From assembly GCA_033580375.1 (NCBI GenBank), contig GCA_033580375.1_4527.1: a stretch of 64,000 nucleotides of DNA, one strand, 5' to 3'. The notes under the pieces were generated by a model, which saw nothing but the letters and a program-made list of their open reading frames with translations, had not been told where the DNA came from and did no database searches. Shown one piece after another: positions 6,751 to 34,298 of this stretch. Within the stretch, counting starts at the first letter, position 1. Each line of letters starts with the position of its first letter. This DNA comes from a phage. Made by a program: the position numbers and the translations under genes.

Positions 6751-7119
6751 TTAATTAAATTTGTTTAAACGTTCAATACACTGGACGTAGTTATTCGCGA
6801 TTTGTTTCTGGGTAGGCTCTTTACCAGTTGTTTCAACATAGCGAATGAATGCGATTTCAGTAGCCTGTAGACAATGTTCTTTAACGCGTTGTTCTTTTGT
6901 CAATGCTACAGTATCAGAGTCACGATAACGTTGAGCATGGGCATCGGCTTGAATCATTCGATTACCTACAGTAACCGGGTCTTCCACTTCAACTTTAGGT
7001 TGGTTGTACTGTTTAACATTCGGGTTATAAATCAATTGGCCAACATTATTAGGGATAAAGCCATGAGCACCACATCCAGTTAATCCGAATACCATTGCTA
7101 AAGCTATTAATTTTTTCAT
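6751..7119 (-). CDS. predicted lipoprotein
   Basis: 122 aa; signal peptide with lipobox LTGC. Confidence 0.5.
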   Translation of the reverse strand: MKKLIALAMVFGLTGCGAHGFIPNNVGQLIYNPNVKQYNQPKVEVEDPVTVGNRMIQADAHAQRYRDSDTVALTKEQRVKEHCLQATEIAFIRYVETTGKEPTQKQIANNYVQCIERLNKFN

Positions 7120-7190
7120 TTCAATTTCCTCTGTAGTTGATAGAAAGATAGTAACACAGTATGCGGTGCTTGTAAACAGTTATTTTAAAA

Positions 7191-7379
7191 TTATCGAAAA
7201 TCTGCTTCAAAAACTTTCTCGTCATTAATAAATGCTTTAACTAATGCGTTGTTCACTTCAGCAAGTTGTACCGCAACCCACTCGATTTCTTCACGATCAC
7301 CTGATAACATGATATCTTTAGTGAACATCTCACCGCTTTTAAACCAGCCAATAAAAGTAATTTTAGTTAATTTGCTCAT
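7191..7379 (-). CDS. dmd: Dmd-like antitoxin (inhibitor of RnlA/LsoA-type toxins)
   Basis: FIGWFKSGEMFTKDI...AEVNNALVKAFIND resembles T4 Dmd as recalled; start taken at internal Met. Confidence 0.5.
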   Translation of the reverse strand: MSKLTKITFIGWFKSGEMFTKDIMLSGDREEIEWVAVQLAEVNNALVKAFINDEKVFEADFR

Positions 7380-7693
7380 ATTTCCTCGCAAAATGCCCAT
7401 TCAGCGTGATAAACTGTAGCACCTTTAGTATCATTCATTTGAACTACATCTACCGGAGAAATTACTCGATAGAGACGTGGTTCACCTCCATAAGAGCGTG
7501 CTGCTCGTCCTGCATAAATCTTTGCTAAACCGATATCTTCAGTAAAGAATACACGATCCAAGTTTTTCTTACGTCCGGTTTCAGACAGAACTCCTGTTTC
7601 TTCAGGAGGACAAAGCATGTTTTCGATGTTAGCTGAACTACTTGAACCGTGATAAAAAATCTTAAATTCTGCTTTACAATCAATGGTTTTCAT
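7376..7693 (-). CDS. hypothetical protein
   Basis: 105-aa ORF with SD GGAGAA. Confidence 0.45.
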   Translation of the reverse strand: MKTIDCKAEFKIFYHGSSSSANIENMLCPPEETGVLSETGRKKNLDRVFFTEDIGLAKIYAGRAARSYGGEPRLYRVISPVDVVQMNDTKGATVYHAEWAFCEEI

Positions 7694-7699
7694 TTTGTT

Positions 7700-7748
7700 C
7701 TCCAGTAGTTGATATGTCTATAATAACACAACTACTGGAGAAGTAAAC
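7700..7748 (-). promoter_or_regulatory. early promoter embedded in 12-bp inverted repeat that can sequester the downstream SD
   Basis: minus GTTTAC-tt-CTCCAGTAGTTG-[loop with TGTTATTAT]-CAACTACTGGAG-aacaaa-ATG; 3' arm contains GGAG of the SD. Confidence 0.6.
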
Positions 7749-8123
7749 TTAAAAACGTAATTTAGATATATCTGCGTTGATTTCGTTTTGGTTTGCGTCG
7801 TATGCAATTAAACGAACCGCTTTAGATGGGTCATTCAATGCATAGAAATGATGGAACATTGCTCGAACGATATCACCATTTACGAGTTCTACCTGGATAG
7901 GAGAACCTTTTTCGAGTTGGAAATGTTCATAAGCTTTGATGGTTCGCAGATAATCAAGTTTTTGATTTCCGGCTCCAACGATTTGTACGATACGTTTGCC
8001 CATGTTTTCCATACGAGATACAATAGTTTTAGGAGCAAGAATAACGTAGGTTGCCAGCGGAGAAACTACTTCAACAGTTGTGTTTTCGGTGATTGCAGTA
8101 AAAATTGCTTGAGACATATTCAT
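7749..8123 (-). CDS. hypothetical protein
   Basis: 124-aa ORF. Confidence 0.45.
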   Translation of the reverse strand: MNMSQAIFTAITENTTVEVVSPLATYVILAPKTIVSRMENMGKRIVQIVGAGNQKLDYLRTIKAYEHFQLEKGSPIQVELVNGDIVRAMFHHFYALNDPSKAVRLIAYDANQNEINADISKLRF

Positions 8124-8185
8124 AATGTTTTCCTCTTGGTTGGTGTAAGTACATCATATCATGCCTAGAGGAAGATGTAAACCCC

Positions 8186-8210
8186 GAAAGGAGACCGAAG
8201 TCTCCTTTTT
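8186..8210. terminator. hairpin terminator (GGAGAC-CGAA-GTCTCC) next to gp41 stop
   Basis: perfect 6-bp stem with tetraloop, T5 run on plus side, weaker U-run on minus side. Confidence 0.45.
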
Positions 8211-8211
8211 A

Positions 8212-9654
8212 TTAAAATTTTAACTCATTGGCTAAGCTATCTAGGTCAGCCCGTGTTGCCTTGGCTTTACCTACGCGTTCCGTGCGATTCACCTCTGCCT
8301 GACGCATCTGAGCACCTGCGTTTTCATTTACCGTGTTAGGTGTGTTCATGCCTTCTTGCTCAATCTCAACCCATTTCTGATTGCCTTTACGTACACCCAT
8401 CAAGAACTTGTTCCACTTATTCTTATCACCATATCGTGATTTGATTTGTTTGATAAGTTGTTGTTCAGCTTGTGCAAGTTCTTCGGTTTCAATTACGGCC
8501 AACATGAAATCTGCTGTCGCCGGTAAACCTGCTGATTCTGCAATATCACTCATGTTCATGTCTGAAGCATCCCATGCTGCACGTCCTACTTGAGCTGCAG
8601 TCCATAGAACTGTTTCAGATTCTACTGCTAATGCACGAAGTTCTTCTGCGATAGCTTTAACTAATGTGTAACTATTTTCAGTGTAAACTCTGATACGACA
8701 AGACCCACAAATACCTAAGTAATCGACTATAATTACAGACGGCACAAAGTTCTTCTTAAGTTTCAATTCATTAAGCAATGCACGGAATGTATTAGCATTA
8801 GCTCCACCAGTAGGATACTGTTTAACTACTAAACGTCCTAATGTTGATTTTGAACGCCATTTTTCCATCTTGGCTTTATATTCAGCATAAGATACGTTAC
8901 CATCATCGATATCATCGAGTGATACGTCAAGCATGTTTGCATCTATACGCTTAGCACAAACTTCTTCAGCCATTTCCATGGAAATATAAAGAACATTATG
9001 TCCTGTTTGAAGATAATCTGCAGCAAGTGAACAAAGGCCTAAAGATTTACCAACGTTAACACCAGCCATTAAAACGTTTAGTGTACCTGTTTCTGCACCA
9101 CCTTTAGTGATTTTATTCAGAATGTTTAATTTGAACGGGACCTTACGTGCTTTATTTAGATAAGAAAGCCAGCGTGATTCGTAGTCTTCCATCCAGTCAT
9201 GACCAACATAACTATCAAACGAAATTGAAAGTGCTTGACGCATAATATCAGGAATAGCTCCTACGTCAGGCATTTTCTTGTTACGTTGTTCTGGAGGTAG
9301 TTCGGCATTAGTCTGAATCTCAATGATTTTGGACGTGGCATTATACATCGCTTTTTGCTGGACATATTTCTCAGTTTCTTTAACCAACCATTCGTGGTCT
9401 TCAGGAGTATCAGCCAATTTTTCAATTAGGTCTGAAGTTCCTTTATATTCGGCTTCAGTTAAAGAACTGTTATCTAAAGCCACCTTTAATGCATTGATAG
9501 ATGGCATTGCATTATATTCGTTAACGTGGCTCTTTATAATTTTAAAGACATTTTTTGCCGGTCCACGCTCAAAATACTCAGAATCCATATAAGGCCAGAC
9601 CTTAGAAAAATAAGCCTGGTCGTATACGAGATGAGACAAAATAATTTCTACCAC
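8212..9654 (-). CDS. 41: replicative DNA helicase gp41 (DnaB-like)
   Basis: 480 aa; Walker A GVNVGKS, DnaB-family layout, matches T4 gp41. Confidence 0.9.
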   Translation of the reverse strand: MVEIILSHLVYDQAYFSKVWPYMDSEYFERGPAKNVFKIIKSHVNEYNAMPSINALKVALDNSSLTEAEYKGTSDLIEKLADTPEDHEWLVKETEKYVQQKAMYNATSKIIEIQTNAELPPEQRNKKMPDVGAIPDIMRQALSISFDSYVGHDWMEDYESRWLSYLNKARKVPFKLNILNKITKGGAETGTLNVLMAGVNVGKSLGLCSLAADYLQTGHNVLYISMEMAEEVCAKRIDANMLDVSLDDIDDGNVSYAEYKAKMEKWRSKSTLGRLVVKQYPTGGANANTFRALLNELKLKKNFVPSVIIVDYLGICGSCRIRVYTENSYTLVKAIAEELRALAVESETVLWTAAQVGRAAWDASDMNMSDIAESAGLPATADFMLAVIETEELAQAEQQLIKQIKSRYGDKNKWNKFLMGVRKGNQKWVEIEQEGMNTPNTVNENAGAQMRQAEVNRTERVGKAKATRADLDSLANELKF

Positions 9655-9663
9655 GATAACTCC

Positions 9664-10026
9664 TTAAAAGAATTTAAATTTTTTCTTGGTTCGTTCATTA
9701 AAAGCTTGTTGTACCTGCATTGTAACACATTTTTCAACATGCGGCGCAAGTTCTGCTTTTCTGTCCTGGTCAAGAACTGCAAAGTCCATTACGATTTTAC
9801 CATCAACCCAGTCTAGTTTTGTAATATAGACTATATGATGAGAACCGTCTTCAAGTGTAATCAGAATCTCTTGAATGACGTTTTCCATTGCTGAACGGAT
9901 AATTTTAAGAGATTCATTAAACACTCGTTCTTTGCGAATGTCTTCCCCTTCCGAAGAAGGGGATTCATCAACGATTTCTAGATTTAAATCATCGAGATTA
10001 TTCATCGAAATCTTCCATTTCGTCAA
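9664..10026 (-). CDS. 40: gp40-like protein (head vertex assembly chaperone)
   Basis: 120-aa ORF in the conserved 41-40-uvsX position; call by synteny only. Confidence 0.45.
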   Translation of the reverse strand: MTKWKISMNNLDDLNLEIVDESPSSEGEDIRKERVFNESLKIIRSAMENVIQEILITLEDGSHHIVYITKLDWVDGKIVMDFAVLDQDRKAELAPHVEKCVTMQVQQAFNERTKKKFKFF

Positions 10027-11170
10027 GGTCGTTTTCTATATCTGCTGCAGATGGAGCATCAGAAGTTTTAACCGGAACTTTAGTTGTTGCTTTGCAATTA
10101 ATAAGGTCGTTAACTGCGTCATCAACTTCTTTAATAGAAGAGATAGCGCCTAGTTTATATTTAGTTTCAATTGCATCTCGGAAAGGTTTGTGTTTAAACA
10201 ACGGTCCCCAGAATTCTACGCAATCAGTAGCTTTAGCACGCCATGATTTCTCTTCACGAATCATTTCACCTGTTTCTTCGTCAAGGAATTCACGAGCATA
10301 CCAACCGGCTTTAGGTTTAACCACAAAACCAATTTCAGTTGCCATTTCTAACAAGCCACTGAATGGGTCAATACCGCCATCAAAATTAACCGTGATCGGG
10401 AAAGTAGATTTCTCTTTAACAGTACGAGATTTTTCTGCTTTCAACGTGAAGTCATAACCGGTCAATTCTGTACCTTCTTTAACCTGACGTTTAGAGATAA
10501 AGAATACAGTGTTAGCAGAGTAAAGAATACCTGTACCACCACCCATAATCTCTTTAGGATATAGTCCACCGATTTCCATTGCTGTATGGTTAATTGCAAC
10601 ACATGGAATATCTTTAATAGTCAGATACGGGGTCACAATACGGAACAGAGATTTAAGTGCCTTAGCACGAGACATATCACCTACGACTTTCTCGTTCAAT
10701 GCATCTTCGGTTTCTTTCTTAGATGCAGTATTACCGATTGAATCGATAAAGATAATAACTTTATCACCGCGTTCAATAGCGTCAAGCTGATTAGTCATAT
10801 CAACTTTAAGTTGTTCGACGGACTGAATTGGTGTGTGAACTACACGGTCTAAATCAACACCCATTGAACGAAAATAAGATTCTGAAGCACCGAATTCTGA
10901 ATCATAGAACAAACAAATTGCATCTTTATATTTCTTCATATACGCTGCAACCATGGTCAGCCCAAACAATGTTTTAAAATGTTTAGAAGGTGCAGCAAAA
11001 ATAGTCAAGCCTGATTGCAATCCTGCATTCAGAGCACCACCTAGTGCAATATTCAACATCGGAATACGAGTAGGGACTTCATCGCGATTATTAAACAGCT
11101 TAGACTTAGTCAAGTCTGCAGTCATTTTAGAAGTAGAAGCTTTAATCAGACGAGATTTTAAATCAGACAT
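9998..11170 (-). CDS. uvsX: recombinase UvsX (RecA-like)
   Basis: MSDLKSRLIKASTSK...RIPMLNIALGG...NHT...WYAREFLDEETGEMIREEKSWRAK nearly co-linear with T4 UvsX. Confidence 0.9.
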   Translation of the reverse strand: MSDLKSRLIKASTSKMTADLTKSKLFNNRDEVPTRIPMLNIALGGALNAGLQSGLTIFAAPSKHFKTLFGLTMVAAYMKKYKDAICLFYDSEFGASESYFRSMGVDLDRVVHTPIQSVEQLKVDMTNQLDAIERGDKVIIFIDSIGNTASKKETEDALNEKVVGDMSRAKALKSLFRIVTPYLTIKDIPCVAINHTAMEIGGLYPKEIMGGGTGILYSANTVFFISKRQVKEGTELTGYDFTLKAEKSRTVKEKSTFPITVNFDGGIDPFSGLLEMATEIGFVVKPKAGWYAREFLDEETGEMIREEKSWRAKATDCVEFWGPLFKHKPFRDAIETKYKLGAISSIKEVDDAVNDLINCKATTKVPVKTSDAPSAADIENDLDEMEDFDE

Positions 11171-11269
11171 TGTATTTTTCCATAGGCATCATTATATTTT
11201 ACTCATGTTTAAAAGATAAGATGATTATATACTAATGATTATACAGCATTTAAAACTTTAAACAGGCTC

Positions 11270-11818
11270 TTAACGAGCCCATTTGATGATTTCTGTAATC
11301 AAATCATTACGTTCGCTTGCATTAAATCCTATAACTTTGTTAGCACCATCATGATTAAGTAATTGATACGTTTGGATTTTGTTATGAATTGCAAACTCTT
11401 CAAAATGTGAAATGACTGTATTAAAACTGAGTGAAGACAAAGTAATAAGATCGTCTTCAAAACTTTCAGTCATTTCGTTACGTGTTAAAATAATTGTGAA
11501 CACGTCATGGTTTTGGCAAAGACGAACATAATCCTGCTCATAAACATCAAGAACCGAGTCCGCATCTTGTCGAATACGTCCATAAACCCAGTTACTAATA
11601 TATCCACGGTCTAACAGATAAATCTTAGTAGGGTCTAAATAATTCAACATCGTTTCGAAACAACCAACTTCATTTCGAGACTTAACATCGAAACGTCCAT
11701 CAACTGTTCGTTTAGGGAAATCAATCTTTACATATCTTTCACTAATTTCCATTATGACATTAATGAAAGTTGTTTTGCCGGCATTATCTGGGCCATCTAC
11801 TAAAATAATTTTAGCCAT
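11270..11818 (-). CDS. thymidylate-kinase-like P-loop nucleotide kinase
   Basis: 182 aa; ILVDGPDNAGKTT Walker A and DRGYISNWVYG resembling the Tmk DR motif. Confidence 0.5.
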   Translation of the reverse strand: MAKIILVDGPDNAGKTTFINVIMEISERYVKIDFPKRTVDGRFDVKSRNEVGCFETMLNYLDPTKIYLLDRGYISNWVYGRIRQDADSVLDVYEQDYVRLCQNHDVFTIILTRNEMTESFEDDLITLSSLSFNTVISHFEEFAIHNKIQTYQLLNHDGANKVIGFNASERNDLITEIIKWAR

Positions 11819-11819
11819 T

Positions 11820-12716
11820 TTATTCCTCGATTACGACATCTTCGTATTTAGGTATATTATACGGCGAAGAAATTAAAGCATTAAAGTAGATGAACTCACC
11901 AAGACCTGGATGGAATACTTCTTCAGGATTTTCGAAATATTGAATCTTCGGACGTCCTTTAAGAATTTGATAGTACTCAGTTTTAGTTGGTTTAAAAATT
12001 CGAATCAGCGCTTCTTCAGGATACTTATTTCTGTCGAAGCTATTATTTGGATCGGTTATATAAAGTGGTTGTCCTAATTGAATTGCACATTCAACCACTT
12101 GTTCAAAATGATAACACGGATCACTAATTCGAAATGGATGAAAAATACCATCTACATGAATAGGAGCCAAATCACCTACAAGACGCTGCATGATGGAAGG
12201 ACGTATAACTTTCTGCGTTACGATAATCTTATTATCTGCGCCAGCGTTAACCAGCACTTCTTTTTGACGTTCATTCAACACAGTAGTTTGAAGTGAACGA
12301 TTAACCGACAACATGTCGGTTTTTAAGAATTCGTCAATATAAAAACGTGGTTTATTAGGGTCTGCAGTGATATTGAAATTGAATTCTACATCAAAAGCGC
12401 CGTCATATCCAGTGATATCTGTGATTAGAAAATCACAATCATAATAAGCAATTAATGAATCAACAACAAATTCATTTTCAGACCAGAAATATTTACGAGT
12501 GTTATACGCGTTATCTTTATACCATAATGGAACAAACTTAAATTCTGGGAAAAGACGTTCACATTCTTTAATATCAGATGCATTACGTGGATATGTAATC
12601 ACATCACCCGGATTAGCACGGTGCAAATGAAGTTGGAAGTTGCCATCCTTAAGGATAGCATACTGTCCAGTTTCATAAGACCGCATACTCAAGATTGGTA
12701 CGCGGAAAATAGCCAT
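11820..12716 (-). CDS. hypothetical protein at the T4 beta-gt position; candidate DNA-modifying transferase
   Basis: 298-aa ORF; no similarity to T4 beta-gt recognisable by eye. Confidence 0.45.
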   Translation of the reverse strand: MAIFRVPILSMRSYETGQYAILKDGNFQLHLHRANPGDVITYPRNASDIKECERLFPEFKFVPLWYKDNAYNTRKYFWSENEFVVDSLIAYYDCDFLITDITGYDGAFDVEFNFNITADPNKPRFYIDEFLKTDMLSVNRSLQTTVLNERQKEVLVNAGADNKIIVTQKVIRPSIMQRLVGDLAPIHVDGIFHPFRISDPCYHFEQVVECAIQLGQPLYITDPNNSFDRNKYPEEALIRIFKPTKTEYYQILKGRPKIQYFENPEEVFHPGLGEFIYFNALISSPYNIPKYEDVVIEE

Positions 12717-13432
12717 TAGTCAAGGAATCCTTTAACATAATCAAAATCACGTTCAAACACATGGGCACTTACCATGGTATGAGTATAATCACCAACTTCT
12801 ACACCGCATTCGTTAGCGATATAATGAAGTAATTTTCCTTGGAGATAAAAATCCAACTGCATAACAACAGCACAGTTCTGAGAACGCATATGACAGTGGG
12901 TATAAAGCTTACCATCACGAATATAATAAGTCACTGAGTCAGTACATGGATATTCAAGTGTTTCATCTGAATCAAGCAAAGCCTGATCAGAACTTTCTAG
13001 AATTTGGAACACAACTCTTCGAGAGTTAGGTTTTTCTTTAAGTTCTTTTAGAAGAGCTGGTAATTGAGCCGCAATGCGAGGACCATAGAAAGTGTTGAAG
13101 TTTGCAGGCAAAGCATCTGATTTTGGTTTAGAAATAAATTTAGCGACATTAGGATATGCCTTAAACGCTTCTTCTGCATCAGTACCACCGGAAATCATAA
13201 ACTTCCAGAAGTCTTCGGCATATTCATAAGATATGCGATTAATACGTGGGTCGGTCATTTTGAATGATGATGGAGTGTCAACAACTACTGTCATAGACCC
13301 AATTTCATTACAACGTCCAATACGAGAATCAGTTACGAATTCTGGGTTTTCTAAAATTTCACGATTGACTGCTTTAAATGCGGTTTGAAAATCTGCGGCT
13401 TTGATATATTTCATTGTGTTATGTTTTCCCAT
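12716..13432 (-). CDS. 42: dCMP hydroxymethylase gp42 (thymidylate-synthase fold)
   Basis: 238 aa; YPCTDSVTYYIRDGKL (catalytic Cys) and HMRSQNCAVVMQLDF resemble T4 gp42/ThyA motifs; syntenic position. Confidence 0.8.
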   Translation of the reverse strand: MGKHNTMKYIKAADFQTAFKAVNREILENPEFVTDSRIGRCNEIGSMTVVVDTPSSFKMTDPRINRISYEYAEDFWKFMISGGTDAEEAFKAYPNVAKFISKPKSDALPANFNTFYGPRIAAQLPALLKELKEKPNSRRVVFQILESSDQALLDSDETLEYPCTDSVTYYIRDGKLYTHCHMRSQNCAVVMQLDFYLQGKLLHYIANECGVEVGDYTHTMVSAHVFERDFDYVKGFLD

Positions 13433-13710
13433 GTTTACCTCAATACAATTTATTATATACTCAATTCGTAAAGCTTATTTGAATTTCTTGGCAATGTTGA
13501 TATAACGTAAAGCTTCAGCATCGATACTTCCAAGAACACTATGAAGAAATGCATCAGCTTAGTATTCTAATTGAACAGGTTCTTTAATCACTTTAGCCGC
13601 TTTGGTTTCAAACAGGCCCATAAGGGCCTTTTTAAGAATTTGTTCGTTAGTGTTCAGTTTCATAGTCAAAATCTCTTCATTAAGTTTATAATTAAAAGCT
13701 TTTCTAGAAA

Positions 13711-14871
13711 TCATTCCGGGTACCTCAAAGCGTCATCAGAGTTAGTTATATCAATAATAGATATGGAGTTTTCTGCTAACCCGTTTTTAGATAATTGACG
13801 TTTGTAATATCTTTCACAATATGTACACGTTGACCCACAGATTTCATTAGCACAATCGAAATCCGGATGTCTGAACCACCTTTTTTCTAAAAAGCCATCT
13901 AACAAAGAGGTTTCAATATTTACTGTATGTGAAAACTCAGTCTCATTTTCAAGAGTGAAAATAGTCTCTAAAGGCTTCCACAGTTCTAACAAATTACCTT
14001 CAAACTTTTCAGAAGCGTATGCTTCAAGAACTTTCAAAATGTAGTCTGTGCTACCTGTACGTCCTGAAACTTTGAATTGAGTGATACCAATATCATTATA
14101 AAGTTTCAAATCTTGAGGACGAACAAAACGAGTTCTCAGCCAGTTAAATGGGTCTGTATCACGAGCTTTAATGCAGTGTTGCATTGGATATCCATTTAAG
14201 GATTTAGCATCATCAGCGGTAACATCAGTACTATGGAAAATATAGCAAGAGTCACGATAACTACAATGTGTTGTATACCCTTTACCAGCATTAGAACAGA
14301 ACTCATTTACAAGAACTTCAAATATTATATTGTTCTTATTGCAAAACTCTGCTGCACGCTTCAGGAAAGAAACTGAACGGTTCTTATGAATTCCACAGCA
14401 GACCTTTTTGATATTATATTGGTCATGCAAGTATTTGATTTGAGTTACGGCATCAACATGTAGAATTGTTGAAACTTCAATCTCAATATCTTTATTGACT
14501 TCACGAACAATTTCCATAACAACAGGGTTAGCGATAGTAATACGCCATACACCTATTGACCAAAGATACTGAACATAATCCTGAATAGCTTTCTTCTTCC
14601 ACTCAACTAGTTCTCTTTTTGAACCAGGATTTATCGTGTTGAGTGTATAGTTAAAGCAAATACCTAATTCGTTACAACGTTTAACATAGTCTTCTAACAT
14701 TTTTTTGTCAACGTCAGGAAGCCTAAAATCAGGTCTGGCTGCTACAAAAGCCATTTCTCTTGTAGAGCCATATACTTCGTTTATCAAGCTATTAGGATAA
14801 GTTTTATTGAGCTCTACGATTTTATCAAGAAGAGCTAAATCAAAATTCGTTCCGATTTTAAAAGTATTCAT
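13711..14871 (-). CDS. hypothetical Cys-rich protein, function unknown
   Basis: 386 aa; C-terminal CANEICGSTCTYC cluster plus further conserved-looking Cys; lies between gene 42 and the sugar-nucleotide genes. Confidence 0.5.
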   Translation of the reverse strand: MNTFKIGTNFDLALLDKIVELNKTYPNSLINEVYGSTREMAFVAARPDFRLPDVDKKMLEDYVKRCNELGICFNYTLNTINPGSKRELVEWKKKAIQDYVQYLWSIGVWRITIANPVVMEIVREVNKDIEIEVSTILHVDAVTQIKYLHDQYNIKKVCCGIHKNRSVSFLKRAAEFCNKNNIIFEVLVNEFCSNAGKGYTTHCSYRDSCYIFHSTDVTADDAKSLNGYPMQHCIKARDTDPFNWLRTRFVRPQDLKLYNDIGITQFKVSGRTGSTDYILKVLEAYASEKFEGNLLELWKPLETIFTLENETEFSHTVNIETSLLDGFLEKRWFRHPDFDCANEICGSTCTYCERYYKRQLSKNGLAENSISIIDITNSDDALRYPE

Positions 14872-14929: not shown

Positions 14930-15331
14930 TTATAGATTCGGTTTATACGATTTAAATGTTTCGAATTCGCCTTTATTCATAAGAGCTTTGAATTCGTCAG
15001 GACGCATAGCTTTGTCGTCGATAATCCAATCATATACTGGTTTATGTGTTAGCAAATTATGGTACTTCAAACCAATGTTTTCCAAGTTCTGAATCAGACT
15101 TGGGAGAATGTCAATTGCTATACGACCAGGACCTACTGACTTCATACCACGAGCAGTGTAAAGCGTTATGGTATGCCCTGCATCATACAGGGCATTAATG
15201 GCGGTCACCATTTCGACGTCTGGTTTGAAGTTCGCGTAATCACGATTGTTATTCCATTCCGTGATGCAATCATCGACATCAAAACAAAGATTAAGCATGT
15301 TTTCTACACGGCGCATTAGATTCGTTCCCAT
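14930..15331 (-). CDS. small HAD-superfamily sugar-phosphate phosphatase (KdsC/GmhB-like)
   Basis: 133 aa; FDVDDCI DxD nucleophile motif near N-terminus, TARG motif II. Confidence 0.55.
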   Translation of the reverse strand: MGTNLMRRVENMLNLCFDVDDCITEWNNNRDYANFKPDVEMVTAINALYDAGHTITLYTARGMKSVGPGRIAIDILPSLIQNLENIGLKYHNLLTHKPVYDWIIDDKAMRPDEFKALMNKGEFETFKSYKPNL

Positions 15332-17001
15332 TGATGAGTGATATCGCCACCGATTGGACGATAGGAAACACCAGTTTCTTTATCAGTTAGTACCCATTTA
15401 CCAGGATTTTTTGTAATCAGAGTAGCCGTTACAGGTTCTGCTACGTCATAACTAATAGAGCCGTCTTGAAGTACACGACCCATGTTACGTAATTGCTTAG
15501 TCAGAAGTTCCATACCTTTATAATATGCGGCTACCGCTTTAAGTGGATTATTCTTGAAATAACCACCTAATGCAATCCAGATAATCGCCACTGCCAAATG
15601 ATGATACTCGTTAAACGAACTCATCTTTCCATATTTGTAAACTAATGGATTGATGTTAATAGTCACATTACAAGTTGTTTCGTCAATAGTAAACTGTCCC
15701 CAGGTCGGATTAGCATTGAATTCATCATAACCTGAAACAGCATAAAGCACTTTAGCTTCATCGTACAATTTTGGCCCGTAAATCTTGGTTTCACCAAAAT
15801 ATCCACGAGGGTCGATAAACTTGACTTCGCCGTTATCAGTAATCATAGTATTACTGAAGTTCGGGTCACCGTGAATAACAGAGTACTGTCCCTGAGAACG
15901 GTTATGATAACGAATAAGGTGTTCTAAAGCTTGTTTCAACATTGGCTTCAGACGTCCAATCTTAGTGTAGTTCACATGTGTGATTTTACCAAATGAATCA
16001 ATCAATGGTTGAATGCTTTCACAACGATCAATAACTTTCGTATAGAATTCTTTAGTGAAATCACGACGAACAGTTTCAGGACTTACAAAATAAATGTCTG
16101 TGCTGAATTTCAGTGCATCTAAAATTGCATCAACAATTTGTGGACGAGCAAGACTTGATTTGGATTTAATATATTCAAATGCTGGCTTACCTTTAATGCG
16201 TTCCATTTCAAAGTTATTTTCATTAACAGAAACTAACTGAGGAACTGAATCTGATTTTACTTTCAAATACCATGAAATCTCATCTTTTTGAAGAGCTCGT
16301 CCCTGTTCTGTTAATGCGAATTTAGTTACAGTTTCTTCACCAATTTCAACTGCATTAAAACTACGATTAAGTTCACGAACTTCATGAGCCTTTTCAAGTT
16401 TAGGCATATCACCTAAATCAATTAGATTCATAAGCTCTGATTTATTGAATGCACTGCCGTAAAGGAATTCTACAAAATCACGTCCTTTACAGTATTCGTG
16501 AATTTCCTCGTCAGTAGAACCCATGTAGAATTCCCAGTCTTTGAACTGATAAATTCCTACAACATTACCGCCTGTTGAACCTACGTTAGTGATATTTTCA
16601 CCATCGAAATTATATCGACATTCATCACCCTTAACATAGATTGCGTTAACATTCCAAGACCATGAACCAAAATCTGGAATAATATCACACCAGTTAACAA
16701 CTACGTTATGGCCGTCTAAATCTTTATGTAATTTAGCAAGAGCATAAGCAGAACCATACGCTTCATCAACTGTACGAATAGTCACATTGAACCCTTCTTG
16801 CTCACAATAAGCTCGAACAGTTTCAGCAAATTTTGAATGAACTACTACAATAATTTCATCTGCACCAAGGTCAGAATAAATTGTATACAAATTGCTCAGA
16901 ATAGTGTCTTGTTTATAGTTCACAAGAACTTTTGGAATATGGTGAGTAATTGGATATAAACGAGTTGCCAGTCCAGCACCAAGAATAACAGCTTTTTTCA
17001 T
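15316..17001 (-). CDS. bifunctional sugar-1-phosphate nucleotidyltransferase (N-term) / APH-type sugar kinase (C-term)
   Basis: 561 aa; N-term ILGAGLATRLYPIT (RmlA/GalU-like G-x-G-x-R), C-term HGDPNFSN Brenner motif and FIDPRG as in choline/aminoglycoside-kinase fold. Confidence 0.65.
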   Translation of the reverse strand: MKKAVILGAGLATRLYPITHHIPKVLVNYKQDTILSNLYTIYSDLGADEIIVVVHSKFAETVRAYCEQEGFNVTIRTVDEAYGSAYALAKLHKDLDGHNVVVNWCDIIPDFGSWSWNVNAIYVKGDECRYNFDGENITNVGSTGGNVVGIYQFKDWEFYMGSTDEEIHEYCKGRDFVEFLYGSAFNKSELMNLIDLGDMPKLEKAHEVRELNRSFNAVEIGEETVTKFALTEQGRALQKDEISWYLKVKSDSVPQLVSVNENNFEMERIKGKPAFEYIKSKSSLARPQIVDAILDALKFSTDIYFVSPETVRRDFTKEFYTKVIDRCESIQPLIDSFGKITHVNYTKIGRLKPMLKQALEHLIRYHNRSQGQYSVIHGDPNFSNTMITDNGEVKFIDPRGYFGETKIYGPKLYDEAKVLYAVSGYDEFNANPTWGQFTIDETTCNVTININPLVYKYGKMSSFNEYHHLAVAIIWIALGGYFKNNPLKAVAAYYKGMELLTKQLRNMGRVLQDGSISYDVAEPVTATLITKNPGKWVLTDKETGVSYRPIGGDITHQWERI

Positions 17002-17042: not shown

Positions 17043-17186
17043 CTAGTTAAAGCATTCATACTTTGCTTGTAGTCCAATCATAATCCATCCAATTACAAGT
17101 GTTGGAATCATTACTGGAGCCGTTAAGCTCCAGTAGATAGTCATGACAAGCATCAATAGTAAAAGTCCTATTGTTATTGCTTTCAT
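17043..17186 (-). CDS. small hydrophobic peptide at the T4 imm position
   Basis: 47 aa, below track threshold; ATG with GAGG SD, entirely hydrophobic. Confidence 0.3.
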   Translation of the reverse strand: MKAITIGLLLLMLVMTIYWSLTAPVMIPTLVIGWIMIGLQAKYECFN

Positions 17187-17818
17187 TGCTCGCCTCGTAA
17201 CATGGCACCTAGAGCACCGCCAGGGTGGAACTTAAGGAAATCATTAGAGGTAAATCCACGTTCAGACGAAAGGTTGATAGCAAACGTATCGATAAGCGCT
17301 AACAACAATGTAGTGGACATGGTCGGAGCTAAAGAGTTCTCGTCAACTTCTACCGCGATACCGGTACAGAACGTATAATCAAAAAGAGCTTCGTATTCTT
17401 GCGGAATGTCAGGGTTACAATGTAACAGAATCTGTTTAACCTGAGGACGAATCATACGAAGATGTTTAGCAACACCTATCATTTCTTCAGTCTTACCAGA
17501 ACGACTGATGTGAACTAATACATCATTAGGTGCAATAAATCCTGCGTCGCCATGAGAATAATGCCCAGTGTTCAAATACATGCTAGGAATACCGAGTGAA
17601 GCAAATGTCTCAGAAGCTTTAGTTGCAATATTAGCATTCTTACCAACACCTGTAATAATTACACGACTTTCATAATTACTCAGTCCAGGGCGTCGAAGAG
17701 TTTCAAGAATAGCATTATAACGAGCAGGGTTTTGACTAATTACTTTGGCCATAGCGGCCAAAGAAGAAGCTTGTTTTATGATTGCGTCAATAGCGATAGT
17801 AATAGGAGTAGTTTTCAT
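17183..17818 (-). CDS. SIS-domain sugar-phosphate isomerase (KdsD/GutQ-like arabinose-5-phosphate isomerase, single domain)
   Basis: 211 aa; ITGVGKNANIATKASETFASLG...HGDAGFIAPNDVLVHISRSGKTEE matches KdsD-type SIS motifs. Confidence 0.65.
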   Translation of the reverse strand: MKTTPITIAIDAIIKQASSLAAMAKVISQNPARYNAILETLRRPGLSNYESRVIITGVGKNANIATKASETFASLGIPSMYLNTGHYSHGDAGFIAPNDVLVHISRSGKTEEMIGVAKHLRMIRPQVKQILLHCNPDIPQEYEALFDYTFCTGIAVEVDENSLAPTMSTTLLLALIDTFAINLSSERGFTSNDFLKFHPGGALGAMLRGEQ

Positions 17819-17858: not shown

Positions 17859-20570
17859 TCAAAAATCGAACATATCGAATAGAGATGCTTTCTTCTCGTA
17901 ATCGAGTTTCGCTGCTGATGTGAATCCTTCAAGTGGTTTAATAAATGTCTTCTCAAGGAGAACAGTGTAGTCCATCCAATGAAGTACATCATCTTTGATT
18001 AAATCAGTGATTTCAGTACCAGAAGGCCATGCGATACATTTATCACCGAACGGGTTTCCTTCACGTAAAGGCAGAACATATACTTTTTCACCTTCTACAA
18101 CTTGTGGTGCATCGATATTACCTTTGATAGCCCGGTTATACGTCAGAATTCCACGAATATGGAACGGACATTTAGGACCAGGGAATCCACCTACATCATA
18201 TTTAGCAATGTTATTCGCAGAAGATACCGACGCGATGCTAATATAATTCAATTGACGGAATTCTTTTTCAAACTCTTTAAAATATTCTTGTAATGATTCT
18301 TCACCTTCTTGAAGCATACGACGAATACATTCTTTAAGAGCTTTCTGTACCGCTTTAGGAGTTGAAGATTTCTGTGTTTCGAGACCCATGATTTTGAGTT
18401 TAGGCTCAGCGTAACGAGTACCTTCCATATCCCACACGTTTAATGCATAACGTTTCTTACCAGTCCAGAATCCGCCAATACCTTTAGAACCGAGCGGAGG
18501 ACCAGCGATAGCTTCTCGGTCCATGAACATTAAGTGTTGTTTATTGTTCATGTATTCACACATTTCACGGAAACCTCTATCAATAGCCGGTTCCATACGT
18601 TCACGAGCGAACTTATCTAAGAAGTCTACCCAATGGTTGGTATCACGGAATTTAGATTCACCAACCTTATCAATAATTTTATCTGCAGATACATAAATGG
18701 AGTCTGTATCACCATAAAGAACGAAAGCTTCACCTTCTGTACCACAAACTTCGTTCAGATATTCATTAACTTTACGTTCAATCCACTGTAAAGCCATTTG
18801 CCCGAATGTTGTGATTGCAGTAGCATTACGCAAATCGTAATAACGGAACCAAACGTTTCCAAGTGCACCATAAAGCGAGTTGATGAGTAATTTACGGTTA
18901 ATCTGTGCAGTCATACCTGCAACTTCAGTACGTTGAGCTCTAAACAACATTTCATTAAGAGATTTAGCAGACAACTTTTTAATCTTTTCTTTAATCTCGT
19001 CAGTGAAGTCGAAACGATAATCAACATCTAATGGTTCATCAACAGAAAGATTAGGATTATGCAATGCCTCTTTAATTATTTCACCATTACGTTGAGCTGC
19101 AAGCATGTAACCTTTATGTTCTTTACGCTGATTAAAGACCTTAGTGATTTCGGTTGGAACTACACCATCACGGTCTTTATAATACATCATGCCATTAGGA
19201 GAGCAACTGTACACATCTGAAGGACGTTCAGCAACAGCGTTAATATAATCATGCAATGGAGCTACTTTAAACGTTCCTGCTATTGTTTCTGGGCTAATAT
19301 TCACTTGGCGAATAATACTTGGATACAGAGATGTAAGGTCGAAACTCATTACATATTTGTATCGATTTGGAATAGGTTCCTTAACAAAAGCGCCAGGATA
19401 AGGTTGAACCGGGTGAGAACGACCTTGTGGAATCACCTTGTTCTGCTCTTTAAGGCTATTAAAAATAATAGCATCCCATGTTTTAATTGGGCTAAACACA
19501 GATTGAATCTGTATCTTAGCATAATAACCCATGTCCAAACTCAAGTTGATGAACTGACGCTTAGCATCAATTTGCAATACACGATACACGTCGATAATGT
19601 TATAAGAAATATATCGTTGGTGATTGCTTTCACGAAGCTTAGAAATAGGGCCTTCATATTTCAGTTTACCAACGTTCAATTCAAATTCTGAAATGTAATC
19701 CAGAGAATACGACGGTTGATTGGTAAAAGAGAATTTTTTGTAAAGGTCAATGTAATCAAGAACAGAGATACCGAACAATGTAATGATTTCACGAGAACCA
19801 TACATGTTTTCGATAACTTTAACACGAGTTTTACGATGTGGTGATAAACGTTTCGCAGTAGATTCGCCAAAAATATTCTTGATTCGGTTATACACATATG
19901 GAATATCAAATGACTCAACGTTCCATCCAGTCAAAATGACAGGAGTTTTCTGTTGCCAGAAGTTGAGATATTCCATCAACAATTCTTTTTCGTTATCGAA
20001 CGGCATATAAATGATTTTATCAATAATTTCGGATGGAACTTCATCACCACCTTGTTCTTGAAGCTTAGCCGCAATTTCGATAGACCATTCTTCCACATTA
20101 CCATATGGAGAATTCAATAGATCAAATACGTAGAACCTGTCGTCAATTGAGTCATAATGGGTGATAGCATCAATCGGATGTTTTGCTTGTGACGGCTCAG
20201 GGAACCCATCCGGAGATGTTACTTCGATGTCGAAGTTAGCCACACGAATTTTTGTATGGTCGTATTTGATTTCATAGTTATAAGTGTCAGACAAATACGC
20301 TAATTTGAAATCGTCCATGCCAAGTGCTTCAAGTCCGATATCTTCCATGCGTTTAATCCATTGGGAGGCATCACGCATATTAGCGAACAACTTACGAGTA
20401 CATGGCTTACCGTAGATATCGAAATATTTCGTAGCCTGACTTTCTGGACAATGAGCAAACAGTGATGGTTTATATTCTACTTCACGAGTACGTTCACGGC
20501 CGTTAGAATCGATGTAACGTTCAAAAATTGAATCACCGATCTGTTCAACCGTTAAGTAAAATTCTTTCAT
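17859..20570 (-). CDS. 43: DNA polymerase gp43 (family B)
   Basis: 903 aa; MKEFYLTVEQIGDSIFERYIDSNGRERTREVEYKPSLFAHCPESQATKYFDIYGKPCTRKLF... matches the RB69 gp43 sequence from structural studies; exo and pol motifs (LYGDTDS) present. Confidence 0.95.
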   Translation of the reverse strand: MKEFYLTVEQIGDSIFERYIDSNGRERTREVEYKPSLFAHCPESQATKYFDIYGKPCTRKLFANMRDASQWIKRMEDIGLEALGMDDFKLAYLSDTYNYEIKYDHTKIRVANFDIEVTSPDGFPEPSQAKHPIDAITHYDSIDDRFYVFDLLNSPYGNVEEWSIEIAAKLQEQGGDEVPSEIIDKIIYMPFDNEKELLMEYLNFWQQKTPVILTGWNVESFDIPYVYNRIKNIFGESTAKRLSPHRKTRVKVIENMYGSREIITLFGISVLDYIDLYKKFSFTNQPSYSLDYISEFELNVGKLKYEGPISKLRESNHQRYISYNIIDVYRVLQIDAKRQFINLSLDMGYYAKIQIQSVFSPIKTWDAIIFNSLKEQNKVIPQGRSHPVQPYPGAFVKEPIPNRYKYVMSFDLTSLYPSIIRQVNISPETIAGTFKVAPLHDYINAVAERPSDVYSCSPNGMMYYKDRDGVVPTEITKVFNQRKEHKGYMLAAQRNGEIIKEALHNPNLSVDEPLDVDYRFDFTDEIKEKIKKLSAKSLNEMLFRAQRTEVAGMTAQINRKLLINSLYGALGNVWFRYYDLRNATAITTFGQMALQWIERKVNEYLNEVCGTEGEAFVLYGDTDSIYVSADKIIDKVGESKFRDTNHWVDFLDKFARERMEPAIDRGFREMCEYMNNKQHLMFMDREAIAGPPLGSKGIGGFWTGKKRYALNVWDMEGTRYAEPKLKIMGLETQKSSTPKAVQKALKECIRRMLQEGEESLQEYFKEFEKEFRQLNYISIASVSSANNIAKYDVGGFPGPKCPFHIRGILTYNRAIKGNIDAPQVVEGEKVYVLPLREGNPFGDKCIAWPSGTEITDLIKDDVLHWMDYTVLLEKTFIKPLEGFTSAAKLDYEKKASLFDMFDF

Positions 20571-32013: not shown

Positions 32014-32484
32014 TTAATCATGTTTCCACACCCCATCGGTATTTGACCAAAGTCGCTGATTATCTGATCCTCGCCATAGCTTTTTGGTCGGAAGATTTTT
32101 CTCATACTTCCCATCAATAATAACATCAACATATTTAAGCATTTCTAGCTGTTTAATATCTTCAAACTTATATCCTGTCCACAACCAAATGCTTTTATTG
32201 GGATAAAGATTTTTAATAGTTTGAACCACAGAATGAATAACATCTCGGTTGTCAGGATAGAGAGGGTCTCCTCCAGATATAGTTAATCCTTCTATATAAT
32301 CATTATTCAAACATTCAATTAATTGTTCTAGTGTCTCTCCGGTGAATGGAGCACCATTTCTAGCGTTCCATGTTGATTTATTATAACACCCTTCACATTT
32401 ATGCAAACACCCTGTAACGAAAAGAACGACCCTACAACCAGGGCCATTAACAAAATCGCAAGGATAAAATCTATCATAATTCAT
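32014..32484 (-). CDS. nrdG: anaerobic ribonucleotide reductase activating protein NrdG
   Basis: 156 aa; Cys cluster near N-terminus (GCLHKCEGCYN) typical of NrdG; same length as T4 NrdG. Confidence 0.85.
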   Translation of the reverse strand: MNYDRFYPCDFVNGPGCRVVLFVTGCLHKCEGCYNKSTWNARNGAPFTGETLEQLIECLNNDYIEGLTISGGDPLYPDNRDVIHSVVQTIKNLYPNKSIWLWTGYKFEDIKQLEMLKYVDVIIDGKYEKNLPTKKLWRGSDNQRLWSNTDGVWKHD

Positions 32485-34298
32485 TGGTGTTTAACCCTAT
32501 GCATGATTTCTTTATTTTTACCGAGATTAAATCCGCGTTCGTTCGGATTTCCAAGATAACCGCATGTTCTTCTTATGGTGTTCATCTTTTTAGGATCAGT
32601 TTCTCCGCAAACTGAACAAACAAATCCATTTTCAGTAGGAGTCATTTCATGAGTACTTCCACATGTAAAACATTTATCTACTGGCATATTAACACCAAAA
32701 TAATCTAAATGTTGTGCAGCATAATCCCAGACAGCCTCAAGTCCCTTTAAATTGTTTTTCATATCAGGAAGTTCAACATAAGAAATGTGACCACCTGTCG
32801 CAATGAAATGATATGGCGCTTCACGAGAAATCTTTTCAAACGGAGTAATATTTTCTTCTACTGAAACGTGGAAACTATTAGTGTACCAGCCTTTATCGGT
32901 AACATCTTTTACACTTCCGTATTTTTCTGTATCAAGTTTACAGAAGCGATAACAAAGGTTTTCAGCAGGAGTCGAATATAAACTAAAAGCAAATCCAGTT
33001 CTTTCAGTCCACTGTTTAAGATGAGCATTCATTTTAGTTAAAATTTCTTGCCCAATATCACGACCGACAAGAATATTCAATTCGTGAATACCAATGTATC
33101 CCAAAGACACTGAACTTCTACCGTTTTTAAATAACTCAATTATGTCGTCATCTGGTTTAAGACGAACCCCGAATGCACCTTCTTGGTAAAGAATAGGAGC
33201 AACAGTCGCTTTAACTCCTTTTAAGGAACTAATTCTACACATCAAAGCTTCAAAACATAAATCCATTCGTTCATTGAATAATTCAACAAATTTCTGTTCA
33301 TTGAACTGTGTTCCAATATAAGAATCTAATGCGATACGAGGAAGATTCAGCGTTACAACACCGAGATTATTACGCCCATCAAGAATTTCATTACTGGTTG
33401 AATCTTTCCATACGCTCAAGAAACTACGGCAACCCATTGGAGAAACTGGAACTGAAGAACCGGTAATAACTTTGTTATTCTTAACCGAAATGATGTCAGG
33501 ATACATTCTTTTGCTTGCACATTCTAACGCAAGCTGCTTAATATCATAGTTCGGGTCGTCTTTATAAAGATTAACACCTTCTTCAATGAACATAACAAGT
33601 TTAGGGAAAATAGGAGTTATTCCATCACGACCAAGACCTTTAATCCGATTTTTCAGAATTGCTTTCTGAATCATTCGTTCAGTCCAATCGGTTCCCGTAC
33701 CAAATGTAATTGTTACAAAAGGCGTTTGTCCATTTGAACTAAAGAGAGTATTTACTTCATATTCATAAGCTTGGAATGCATCGTATACGTCTTTTTCTGT
33801 TTTAGATTGAGCATAATTCAACGCATCAGCGATTTGCCATTTTTCTGCATCCTCAATATGTTTTGCATAGGTGCGTTTAACATAAGGAGAAAGTACTTTA
33901 TCTACATTAGCAAAAGTCGTTCCGCCGTATTGATGTGAAGCAACTTGTGCAGTAATTTGTGCCATAATTGCAGTAGCAACACCAATCGATTTAGGCGTTT
34001 CAATTTGAGCATTGCCTAATTTAAAACCATTCTCAAGCATCCCCTTTAAATCGACTAAACAGCAATTGGTAAACGGAAGAGCAGGAGAATAATCAATATC
34101 ATGCATATGAATGATTCCGCTTTCATGCGCATTCATAATAAAAGACGGGACCATATTTTTGGCAATGTGCTTAGACACAATACCAGCCATAAGGTCCCGT
34201 TGAGTTGGAAAAACACGAGAATCTTTATTAGCATTCTCGTTCAAAAGATCTTTATTAGTTTTATAAATTAATCCTTCAATTTCTTTTTCAATTTTCAT
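32481..34298 (-). CDS. nrdD: anaerobic ribonucleoside-triphosphate reductase NrdD
   Basis: 605 aa; C-terminal glycyl-radical motif RTCGYLG and Zn-ribbon cysteines; uninterrupted ORF. Confidence 0.9.
   Translation of the reverse strand: MKIEKEIEGLIYKTNKDLLNENANKDSRVFPTQRDLMAGIVSKHIAKNMVPSFIMNAHESGIIHMHDIDYSPALPFTNCCLVDLKGMLENGFKLGNAQIETPKSIGVATAIMAQITAQVASHQYGGTTFANVDKVLSPYVKRTYAKHIEDAEKWQIADALNYAQSKTEKDVYDAFQAYEYEVNTLFSSNGQTPFVTITFGTGTDWTERMIQKAILKNRIKGLGRDGITPIFPKLVMFIEEGVNLYKDDPNYDIKQLALECASKRMYPDIISVKNNKVITGSSVPVSPMGCRSFLSVWKDSTSNEILDGRNNLGVVTLNLPRIALDSYIGTQFNEQKFVELFNERMDLCFEALMCRISSLKGVKATVAPILYQEGAFGVRLKPDDDIIELFKNGRSSVSLGYIGIHELNILVGRDIGQEILTKMNAHLKQWTERTGFAFSLYSTPAENLCYRFCKLDTEKYGSVKDVTDKGWYTNSFHVSVEENITPFEKISREAPYHFIATGGHISYVELPDMKNNLKGLEAVWDYAAQHLDYFGVNMPVDKCFTCGSTHEMTPTENGFVCSVCGETDPKKMNTIRRTCGYLGNPNERGFNLGKNKEIMHRVKHQ

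Follow-up and report, generated by a model that had tools for sequence, protein, structure and literature searches.

We analysed a 64,000-nucleotide stretch of phage DNA, here called the window (NCBI GenBank assembly GCA_033580375.1, contig GCA_033580375.1_4527.1), and two proteins encoded on its minus strand: one of 298 residues (positions 11820-12716) and one of 386 residues (13711-14871). The window is an RB69-like Mosigvirus, and the region is the arabinosyl-5-hydroxycytosine DNA-modification cluster of such a phage. The 7 kilobases (kb) around the two genes are 97-98% identical to many RB69-like phages (Mosigvirus) infecting E. coli and Shigella. An earlier note on this DNA had put forward both proteins as candidates for the DNA sugar transferase. 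Structure prediction and fold searching support that proposal for the 298-residue protein, which has a GT-B glycosyltransferase fold and is conserved and syntenic, and not for the 386-residue protein, which is a TIM barrel of the U32 family. We give somewhat better than an even chance to a joint explanation in which the 298-residue protein is the first arabinosyltransferase and the 386-residue protein is a prephenate-dependent, oxygen-independent hydroxylase. The evidence comes from protein folds and families, cysteine conservation, gene neighbourhoods and phyletic patterns.

The 386-residue protein is a member of the U32 family

The 386-residue protein matches Peptidase_U32 (PF01136) over residues 94-286, with 42.2 bits against a cut-off of 22.4. 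Its structural model is confident (predicted local distance difference test, pLDDT, 91.7) and shows a U32 TIM barrel with PDB 5D88 as the top fold match; a comparison of the sequence with the PDB gave chance matches only. With this fold, which is neither GT-A nor GT-B, the suggestion that the protein founds a new transferase family fails. The fallback offered with it, an additional modification enzyme with a metal or iron-sulphur (Fe-S) site, is supported. The C-terminal motif CANEICGSTCTYC is present as C340-ANEI-C345-GST-C349-TY-C352 (CX4CX3CX2C), and this cluster and the other cysteines that had drawn attention are real. Ten of them (C158, C177, C192, C203, C209, C233, C340, C345, C349 and C352) show no variation across 32 homologues, the most distant of which are 47% identical.

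The characterised U32 proteins are RlhA, which makes 5-hydroxycytidine (ho5C) at C2501 of 23S rRNA, TrhP, which makes 5-hydroxyuridine (ho5U) at position 34 of tRNA (ho5U34), and UbiU/V, which serve anaerobic ubiquinone synthesis (PMC5727448, PMC6599085, PMC10990095). All of them need Fe-S and prephenate and do not need O2 (same references). Aligned by hhalign with single E. coli sequences, the clade of the 386-residue protein gives probabilities of 81% for RlhA, 10% for TrhP and 4% for UbiU. The hhalign alignment with RlhA pairs E190, C203 and C209 with E161, C169 and C176, which are essential for hydroxylation of rRNA C2501 (PMC5727448, PMC6599085, PMC10990095). A MAFFT alignment with RlhA, TrhP, UbiU and UbiV pairs C192, C209 and C233 with C169, C176 and C193, and reveals a shared FKxxGR motif. 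The residues compared are the conserved glutamate and the cysteines that bind a 4Fe-4S cluster (E161, C169 and C176 of RlhA; C169, C176, C193 and C232 of UbiU), and the alignments place E190 and three cysteines. Under either alignment, the core Fe-S motif of the U32 family appears to be conserved in the 386-residue protein, with a cysteine-bearing insertion. The protein has no DUF3656 match and scores 18.5 bits with the UbiU equivalog model, for which the cut-off is 440. The protein belongs to a small clade of its own, with 1661 cluster representatives among 1.84 billion at E<=1e-3.

The base modified in the cluster is 5-hydroxycytosine

The ThyA-family gene that the 298-residue gene abuts had been read as gene 42, and the DNA as carrying 5-hydroxymethylcytosine (hmC). 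Its product matches PDB 9IQC over 238 of 238 residues (540 bits, 3 differences, ~99% identity), and the RB69 orthologue, gp48, turns dCMP into 5-hydroxy-dCMP (5hodCMP; Lee et al., NAR 2026, PMC13326640), so that it is not a dCMP hydroxymethylase and the premise of hmC as acceptor is wrong. RB69 gp48 is flavin-bound and incorporates 18O from O2, and the DNA of RB69 contains mono- and di-arabinosyl-5-hydroxycytosine, not arabinosyl-hmC (PMC13326640). Since the RB69 orthologue is a flavin- and O2-dependent dCMP 5-hydroxylase, the DNA base is expected to be arabinosyl-5-hydroxycytosine (arabinosyl-5hoC), and any transferase encoded here would therefore act on a 5-hydroxyl and not on a hydroxymethyl group. 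The known pathways of RNA pyrimidine hydroxylation employ no homologues of the 5hodCMP synthase (Lee et al., PMC13326640).

The U32 gene lies beside prephenate-related and glycosyltransferase genes in other phages

In Winklervirus, Kanagawavirus, Thanatos and other genera, the gene directly after U32 is a chorismate mutase that overlaps the U32 stop codon. Chorismate mutase is the enzyme that makes prephenate. The Pfam model CM_2 scores 44.6 bits in LC53 and 40.9 bits in Entb_45 (cut-off 27), and 13 chorismate mutase models match Thanatos TH1_066. A tblastn search finds the gene in 56 phage records; every one belongs to a genus of T4-like phages with U32, and where annotation shows the neighbours of the gene these are U32 and ThyA-like genes. 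In Thanatos the pair of U32 and chorismate mutase has changed sides as a unit with respect to the transferase and kinase genes. In the cluster of Serratia phage LC53 (L004:5352-5990) a NUMOD3-containing homing-endonuclease-like gene lies between the phosphatase and U32 genes.

The chorismate mutase slot is occupied in Mosigvirus by gp49, a 79-residue protein to which no function is assigned and whose homologues are confined to Mosigvirus. The homologue in the window matches positions 1-51 of the 79 of phrog_8601: the TAC codon (Tyr52 in RB69) is TAA here, leaving 51 of 79 codons (Table 1). Truncated variants of 47-58 residues are frequent among Mosigvirus relatives, which suggests that the gene is decaying. 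The idea that gp49 is a diverged chorismate mutase was rejected, as neither the window protein nor the RB69 protein has a Pfam match, hhalign gives 0.05%, and the protein belongs to PHROG 8601 and not 10027. E. coli provides prephenate to its own U32 enzymes (PMC5727448, PMC6599085, PMC10990095), so the missing phage chorismate mutase is not fatal to the proposed role of the 386-residue protein.

The metagenomic comparison covered 10 independent loci with U32 proteins 47-56% identical to the 386-residue protein, most of them clearly phage (DNA polymerase III alpha subunit, or Pol III alpha, RecA, primase, terminase). In five of these loci the gene directly abutting U32 encodes a homologue of the 298-residue glycosyltransferase (GT), and in L012 such a gene lies two genes away, making six of the ten. 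The homologues are found at E 1e-31 to 1e-40 with hidden Markov models, and hhalign gives 99.8% for the two tested, those of L015 and L012. There is no ThyA-like gene within 10 kb of U32 in any of the ten loci. Common neighbours of U32 are thymidylate-kinase-like genes, dUTPase or MazG-type genes and dCMP deaminases, and weak homologues of the 182-residue kinase of the window (Table 1) stand beside the GT and U32 genes in L015, L018 and L022. Given the adjacent GT and the lack of a ThyA-like gene within 10 kb, U32 stands where a hydroxylase is needed. The fullest example is L012, from an uncultured Pol-III-alpha-type phage, where homologues of the GT, the SIS isomerase and the nucleotidyltransferase/kinase are followed directly by U32, a Bacillus-type DAHP synthase (E 3e-70) and an epimerase (6939-12804). 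DAHP synthase is the first enzyme of the shikimate pathway. Judged by its gene content, L012 appears to be a near-complete pentosyl-hydroxypyrimidine cluster without a ThyA-like hydroxylase.

Two further assignments in these loci were dropped. A 402-residue protein of L001 proved not to be a member of the 298-residue family, and the protein that follows U32 in L001, L013 and L023 is unrelated to the DAHP synthase of L012 and gives a weak epimerase-like signal only.

Conservation and distribution of U32

Few proteins of the cluster are as conserved as U32, which is under strong constraint: it is 84-88% identical to its counterparts in LC53 and Entb_45, whereas the GT reaches 60-69% and the helicase 66-72%. 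Only phages of Enterobacterales and Shewanella were found to carry it, and the arabinosyl-5hoC clusters in phages of Acinetobacter, a strict aerobe, lack it. A strict rule by which a facultatively anaerobic host implies U32 had to be abandoned, because the E. coli Dhakavirus JS98 has no U32. The JS98 cluster (L010) has the ThyA-like gene, transferase, kinase, phosphatase and nucleotidyltransferase, with the kinase moved upstream of the ThyA-like gene, and lacks U32, chorismate mutase and the SIS isomerase. The modification pathway as such can thus do without U32.

The window also encodes an NrdD anaerobic ribonucleotide reductase and its NrdG-type activase (Table 1), and the phage is therefore equipped for replication in the absence of oxygen. 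The published hydroxylase depends on O2 and so cannot work in anoxia. Phages of gut and sediment bacteria that carry an anaerobic ribonucleotide reductase yet depend on an O2-requiring hydroxylase would thus face a gap in the supply of 5-hydroxycytosine.

From U32 family membership, the chorismate mutase and DAHP synthase neighbours, the GT adjacency, and the conservation and phyletic pattern, we therefore propose that the 386-residue protein is a prephenate-dependent, oxygen-independent cytosine C5 hydroxylase doing the same job as the ThyA-family enzyme, an assignment to which we give a little over even odds. The protein would hydroxylate C5 of dCMP, or of another deoxycytidine form, with prephenate as oxygen donor. 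It would thereby allow the phage to make 5-hydroxy-dCMP without O2, in addition to the route through the O2- and flavin-dependent ThyA-like hydroxylase, whose gene is two genes away. We infer the substrate of the U32 protein (dCMP, another nucleotide or DNA) and that of the GT, and likewise prephenate use, Fe-S binding and the anaerobic role. A broader version falls slightly short of an even chance in our estimate: that the mostly viral U32 clade as a whole consists of O2-independent, prephenate-using deoxypyrimidine C5 hydroxylases, acting as a backup to the ThyA-like enzyme in T4-like phages of facultative anaerobes, and as the sole hydroxylase feeding the adjacent GT in Pol-III-alpha-type phages known only from metagenomes.

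The 298-residue protein is a predicted arabinosyltransferase

The 298-residue protein has no match in Pfam, NCBIfam or the PDB sequences, the last compared both with the single sequence and with a 33-sequence family profile. The remark that no recognisable glycosyltransferase is encoded here thus holds, at the level of sequence only. An AlphaFold model built on the family alignment is confident (pLDDT 94.3) and has a GT-B fold, with two Rossmann-like beta/alpha/beta domains and an inter-domain cleft. Curated GT family models such as Glycos_transf_1 and Glyco_trans_4 are unmatched, and membership of GT-B is by fold only. On the strength of this model, the protein is most likely a stripped-down GT-B (GT4-like) glycosyltransferase, with transfer of a sugar from a nucleoside diphosphate (NDP)-sugar as the predicted activity, and it is a good candidate for the DNA sugar transferase. 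Its gene lies, as the earlier note had observed, in the slot of T4 beta-gt, abutting the ThyA-like gene on the uvsX side (Thomas et al. 2018). The lack of resemblance to T4 beta-gt and alpha-gt is likewise borne out: there is no sequence similarity, and the protein does not fall within GT63.

The protein is an intact orthologue of RB69 gp46:47, DLP3 gp79 and Thanatos TH1_063. RB69 gp46:47 family members are 45-99% identical over at least 98% of the length by tblastn, and the family of the 298-residue protein occurs in 349 phage records, 57 of them from Acinetobacter phages. The gene adjoins the ThyA-like gene in RB69, LC53, Entb_45, JS98, DLP3 and Thanatos, and the family is present and syntenic in every arabinosyl-5hoC phage checked. 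RB69 gp46:47 and DLP3 gp79 have already been predicted to be the base-proximal arabinosyltransferase, and the split of gp46:47 into two open reading frames (ORFs) in the RB69 reference was ascribed to sequencing error (Lee et al. 2026, PMC13326640). The chain-extending transferase of the gp3 type (RB69 gp3, essentially identical to PDB 9IQZ) is not in the window and is confined to Mosigvirus and Acinetobacter phages, groups carrying two or three arabinoses, and the mono-arabinosylated LC53 has only the 298-residue type and no gp3-type enzyme. This phyletic pattern supports the published idea that the 298-residue family adds the base-proximal arabinose. Our analysis of the transferase adds little to that idea beyond confirming an already published prediction for an ORF that is intact. 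Most likely the enzyme takes arabinofuranose from UDP-arabinose and attaches it, as the first sugar, to the 5-hydroxyl of cytosine, and the UDP-arabinose would come from the neighbouring isomerase, kinase/uridylyltransferase and phosphatase.

Organisation of the cluster and side observations

The genes of the cluster abut or overlap their neighbours and form a single tightly packed unit (Table 1). Both proteins had been described as flanking gene 42; this is true of the 298-residue gene, which abuts it, and not of the 386-residue gene, which is separated from it by the small gp49 homologue. The 182-residue kinase has a weak match to the dTMP-kinase NCBIfam model, and its RB69 orthologue is listed as a nucleotide kinase in Table 1 of Lee et al. 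(PMC13326640), where a role is also given for the gp51/AfhF-type phosphatase. The C-terminal half of the 561-residue protein matches kinase families in Pfam, and nucleotidyltransferase activity has been demonstrated for its counterpart, HY126 AfhE (PMC13326640). A scan for promoters and terminators between 11 and 18 kb gave nothing above shuffled expectation.

Table 1. Features of the window and of the metagenomic loci.
Feature	Position	Strand	Basis or remark
gp41 helicase	8212-9654	minus	
uvsX	9998-11170	minus	
182-residue P-loop nucleotide kinase, thymidylate-kinase-like, RB69 gp45 orthologue	11270-11818	minus	phrog_761 thymidylate kinase, E 2e-44
298-residue putative minimal GT-B glycosyltransferase, RB69 gp46:47 orthologue	11820-12716	minus	predicted base-proximal 5-hydroxycytosine arabinosyltransferase
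238-residue ThyA-family dCMP 5-hydroxylase (5hodCMP synthase; gene 42 of the earlier note)	12716-13432	minus	9IQC match
gp49 homologue, phrog_8601 (function not assigned)	13475-13714	minus	in-frame TAA 13559-13561
386-residue U32-family protein of putative Fe-S type, RB69 gp50 orthologue	13711-14871	minus	proposed prephenate-dependent, O2-independent pyrimidine C5 hydroxylase
133-residue HAD-type phosphatase, RB69 gp51 / HY126 AfhF type	14930-15331	minus	TIGR01689 capsule phosphatase, E 1.5e-13
561-residue bifunctional sugar-1-phosphate nucleotidyltransferase and kinase, RB69 gp52:53 / AfhE type	15316-17001	minus	PF00483, E 8e-10
211-residue SIS-domain arabinose-5-phosphate isomerase, RB69 gp55 type	17183-17818	minus	PF01380, E 1e-9; same annotation in relatives
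DNA polymerase	17859-20570	minus	
NrdG-type activase, 156 residues	32014-32484	minus	CxxxCxxC motif
NrdD anaerobic ribonucleotide reductase	32481-34298	minus	PF13597, E 4e-171
Radical SAM/SPASM genes	L001:1-249, L002:12160-13185, L016:7972-9000, L022:7980-9011, L023:2681-3628		

Several observations in the metagenomic loci stand apart from these assignments. A radical SAM/SPASM gene of 311-343 residues, without a specific NCBIfam assignment, recurs in five of the ten loci (Table 1), next to the genes for kinase, transferase and U32, and could provide a further oxygen-independent modification or maturation step. The phage contig L018 (7777-16179) encodes a Gly_transf_sug protein, a kinase-like protein, the GT homologue, U32, a dUTPase and a UDP-galactopyranose mutase (GLF), a combination that hints at a furanose other than arabinose on a hydroxylated base. 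L002 has a second, highly divergent U32-like protein (13227-14360), 22% identical to the window protein and just under the PF01136 cut-off, 4 kb from the first and adjoining the radical SAM gene and a nucleoside deoxyribosyltransferase-like gene.

Weighing the alternatives

RB69 gp50 appears in the literature consulted only as a "Sugar or heterocycle reductase", listed without discussion (Lee et al. 2026 Table 1, PMC13326640). Lee et al. cite He et al. 2026 (Nat Chem Biol) and Mahler et al. 2025 (Cell Host Microbe), yet give no function for gp50 (PMC13326640), and in the literature other than those two papers we found no assignment of gp50 as a U32 hydroxylase. Full-text searches combining U32 with 5-hydroxycytosine, or chorismate mutase with phage, returned nothing relevant, and a transposon sequencing (Tn-seq) preprint that names Bas46 and LC53 holds no gene-level data for this cluster. 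The published label, taken as a sugar or heterocycle reductase or another tailoring enzyme of the arabinose pathway, agrees with some weaker fold matches of the 386-residue model to reductases such as MTHFR-type TIM barrels, and with the position of the L012 U32 among sugar-nucleotide genes. We regard it as improbable. A Pfam scan detected no flavin or NAD motif in the protein, RB69 DNA contains mono- and di-arabinosyl-5hoC only and no reduced species is reported for it, DLP3 forms the same base-proximal product without U32, and chorismate mutase and DAHP synthase as neighbours speak for prephenate chemistry. It is also unlikely, if marginally less so, that U32 hydroxylates RNA (tRNA U34 like TrhP, or 23S rRNA C2501 like RlhA) and tunes translation, through the tRNAs of the phage itself or of its host, unrelated to DNA. 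All characterised nucleic-acid U32 enzymes act on RNA and RlhA is the best E. coli match, but the 386-residue protein lacks DUF3656 and the TrhP-type C-terminal regions, phage U32 occurs only inside DNA-modification clusters of GT-carrying phages, and in unrelated phages the gene abuts GT, nucleotide kinase, dUTPase/dCMP deaminase and DNA polymerase genes. That the protein is a collagenase-like peptidase, as its GenBank annotation has it, or a second sugar transferase, seems very improbable. The historical family name and database annotations speak for a peptidase, but those U32 proteins that have been characterised are now understood as Fe-S hydroxylation factors and the genomic context is one of nucleotide and sugar metabolism; the TIM barrel counts against both roles.

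For the 298-residue protein, the alternative is a UDP-pentose pyrophosphorylase, with the first transferase elsewhere (the gp3 type or the N-terminal domain of the 561-residue protein). Thanatos TH1_063 is reported to make UDP-xylose in vitro from UTP and xylose-1-phosphate, the solved HY126 transferase is of the gp3 type, and DLP3 gp79 alone is inactive on 5hoC DNA. Against this, the predicted fold is GT-B and not that of a nucleotidyltransferase, the 561-residue protein already has a nucleotidyltransferase domain whose AfhE counterpart is active, and mono-arabinosylated phages have no gp3-type enzyme. We give this alternative a similarly small chance as the reductase.

Several points weigh against the roles that we favour, namely first arabinosyltransferase and oxygen-independent hydroxylase. 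Both roles are predictions. In vitro hydroxylase activity has been shown for no U32 protein so far, the match to the E. coli U32 paralogues is remote (4-81% by hhalign), and hhalign and MAFFT disagree on whether C203 or C192 corresponds to C169 of RlhA. U32 is accessory, being absent from E. coli Dhakavirus JS98 and Acinetobacter phage DLP3, and Mosigviruses, the window included, have no detectable chorismate mutase, the gene in its slot being truncated here. The strongest support for the U32 role comes from relatives and not from the window sequence, and the anaerobic origin of the metagenomic loci is undocumented. On the transferase side, the UDP-xylose activity of TH1_063 counts here too, as does the inactivity of single DLP3 transferases on 5hoC DNA (Lee et al., PMC13326640).

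Comparison with known systems

If the proposed role of the 386-residue protein is correct, it is a U32 enzyme with a new substrate class and in a viral setting, and prephenate-dependent hydroxylation extends from RNA and quinones to DNA precursors and viruses. On the broader version, for the U32 clade as a whole, glycosyl-5-hydroxypyrimidine DNA hypermodification would be widespread and unrecognised. No U32 enzyme has yet been reconstituted in vitro, and a small soluble nucleotide substrate would offer the first tractable in vitro system for U32/prephenate chemistry. In uncultured phages, the conserved trio of kinase, transferase and U32 would serve as a marker by which to find new DNA hypermodifications. 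If DNA modification differs with oxygen, this would bear on evasion of restriction and CRISPR, and hence on the choice of phages for gut therapy.

The 298-residue protein has no sequence similarity to T4 beta-gt and alpha-gt and is about 50-100 residues shorter. Its predicted acceptor is 5-hydroxycytosine and its predicted donor UDP-arabinofuranose, whereas the T4 enzymes use hmC and UDP-glucose. Compared with RB69 gp46:47, DLP3 gp79 and TH1_063, its ORF is intact in the window and split in the RB69 reference.

Among U32 domains, only that of Methanopyrus kandleri Mk0906 (PDB 5D88) has been solved. Mk0906 comprises 247 residues, with 14% identity to the 386-residue protein; it lacks the region of the C-terminal cysteine cluster, and its function is not assigned. 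With RlhA, TrhP and UbiU/V, the 386-residue protein shares the U32 Pfam domain, the TIM barrel, apparently the conserved glutamate and cysteines, the FKxxGR motif and, through its relatives, a genomic link to prephenate. It differs from them in forming a separate clade without DUF3656, in its own CX4CX3CX2C cluster and in the cysteine-bearing insertion in the core motif. It is also virus-encoded, within clusters for DNA nucleotides and DNA glycosylation, and its presumed substrate is a deoxynucleotide and not RNA or a quinone. The chemistry proposed for it, C5 hydroxylation of cytosine, is that carried out by RlhA. A pairing of O2-dependent and O2-independent hydroxylases, as proposed for the window, has counterparts in E. 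coli itself, where UbiI/H/F (O2) stand beside UbiU/V in ubiquinone synthesis and TrhO (O2) stands beside TrhP in the formation of ho5U in tRNA.

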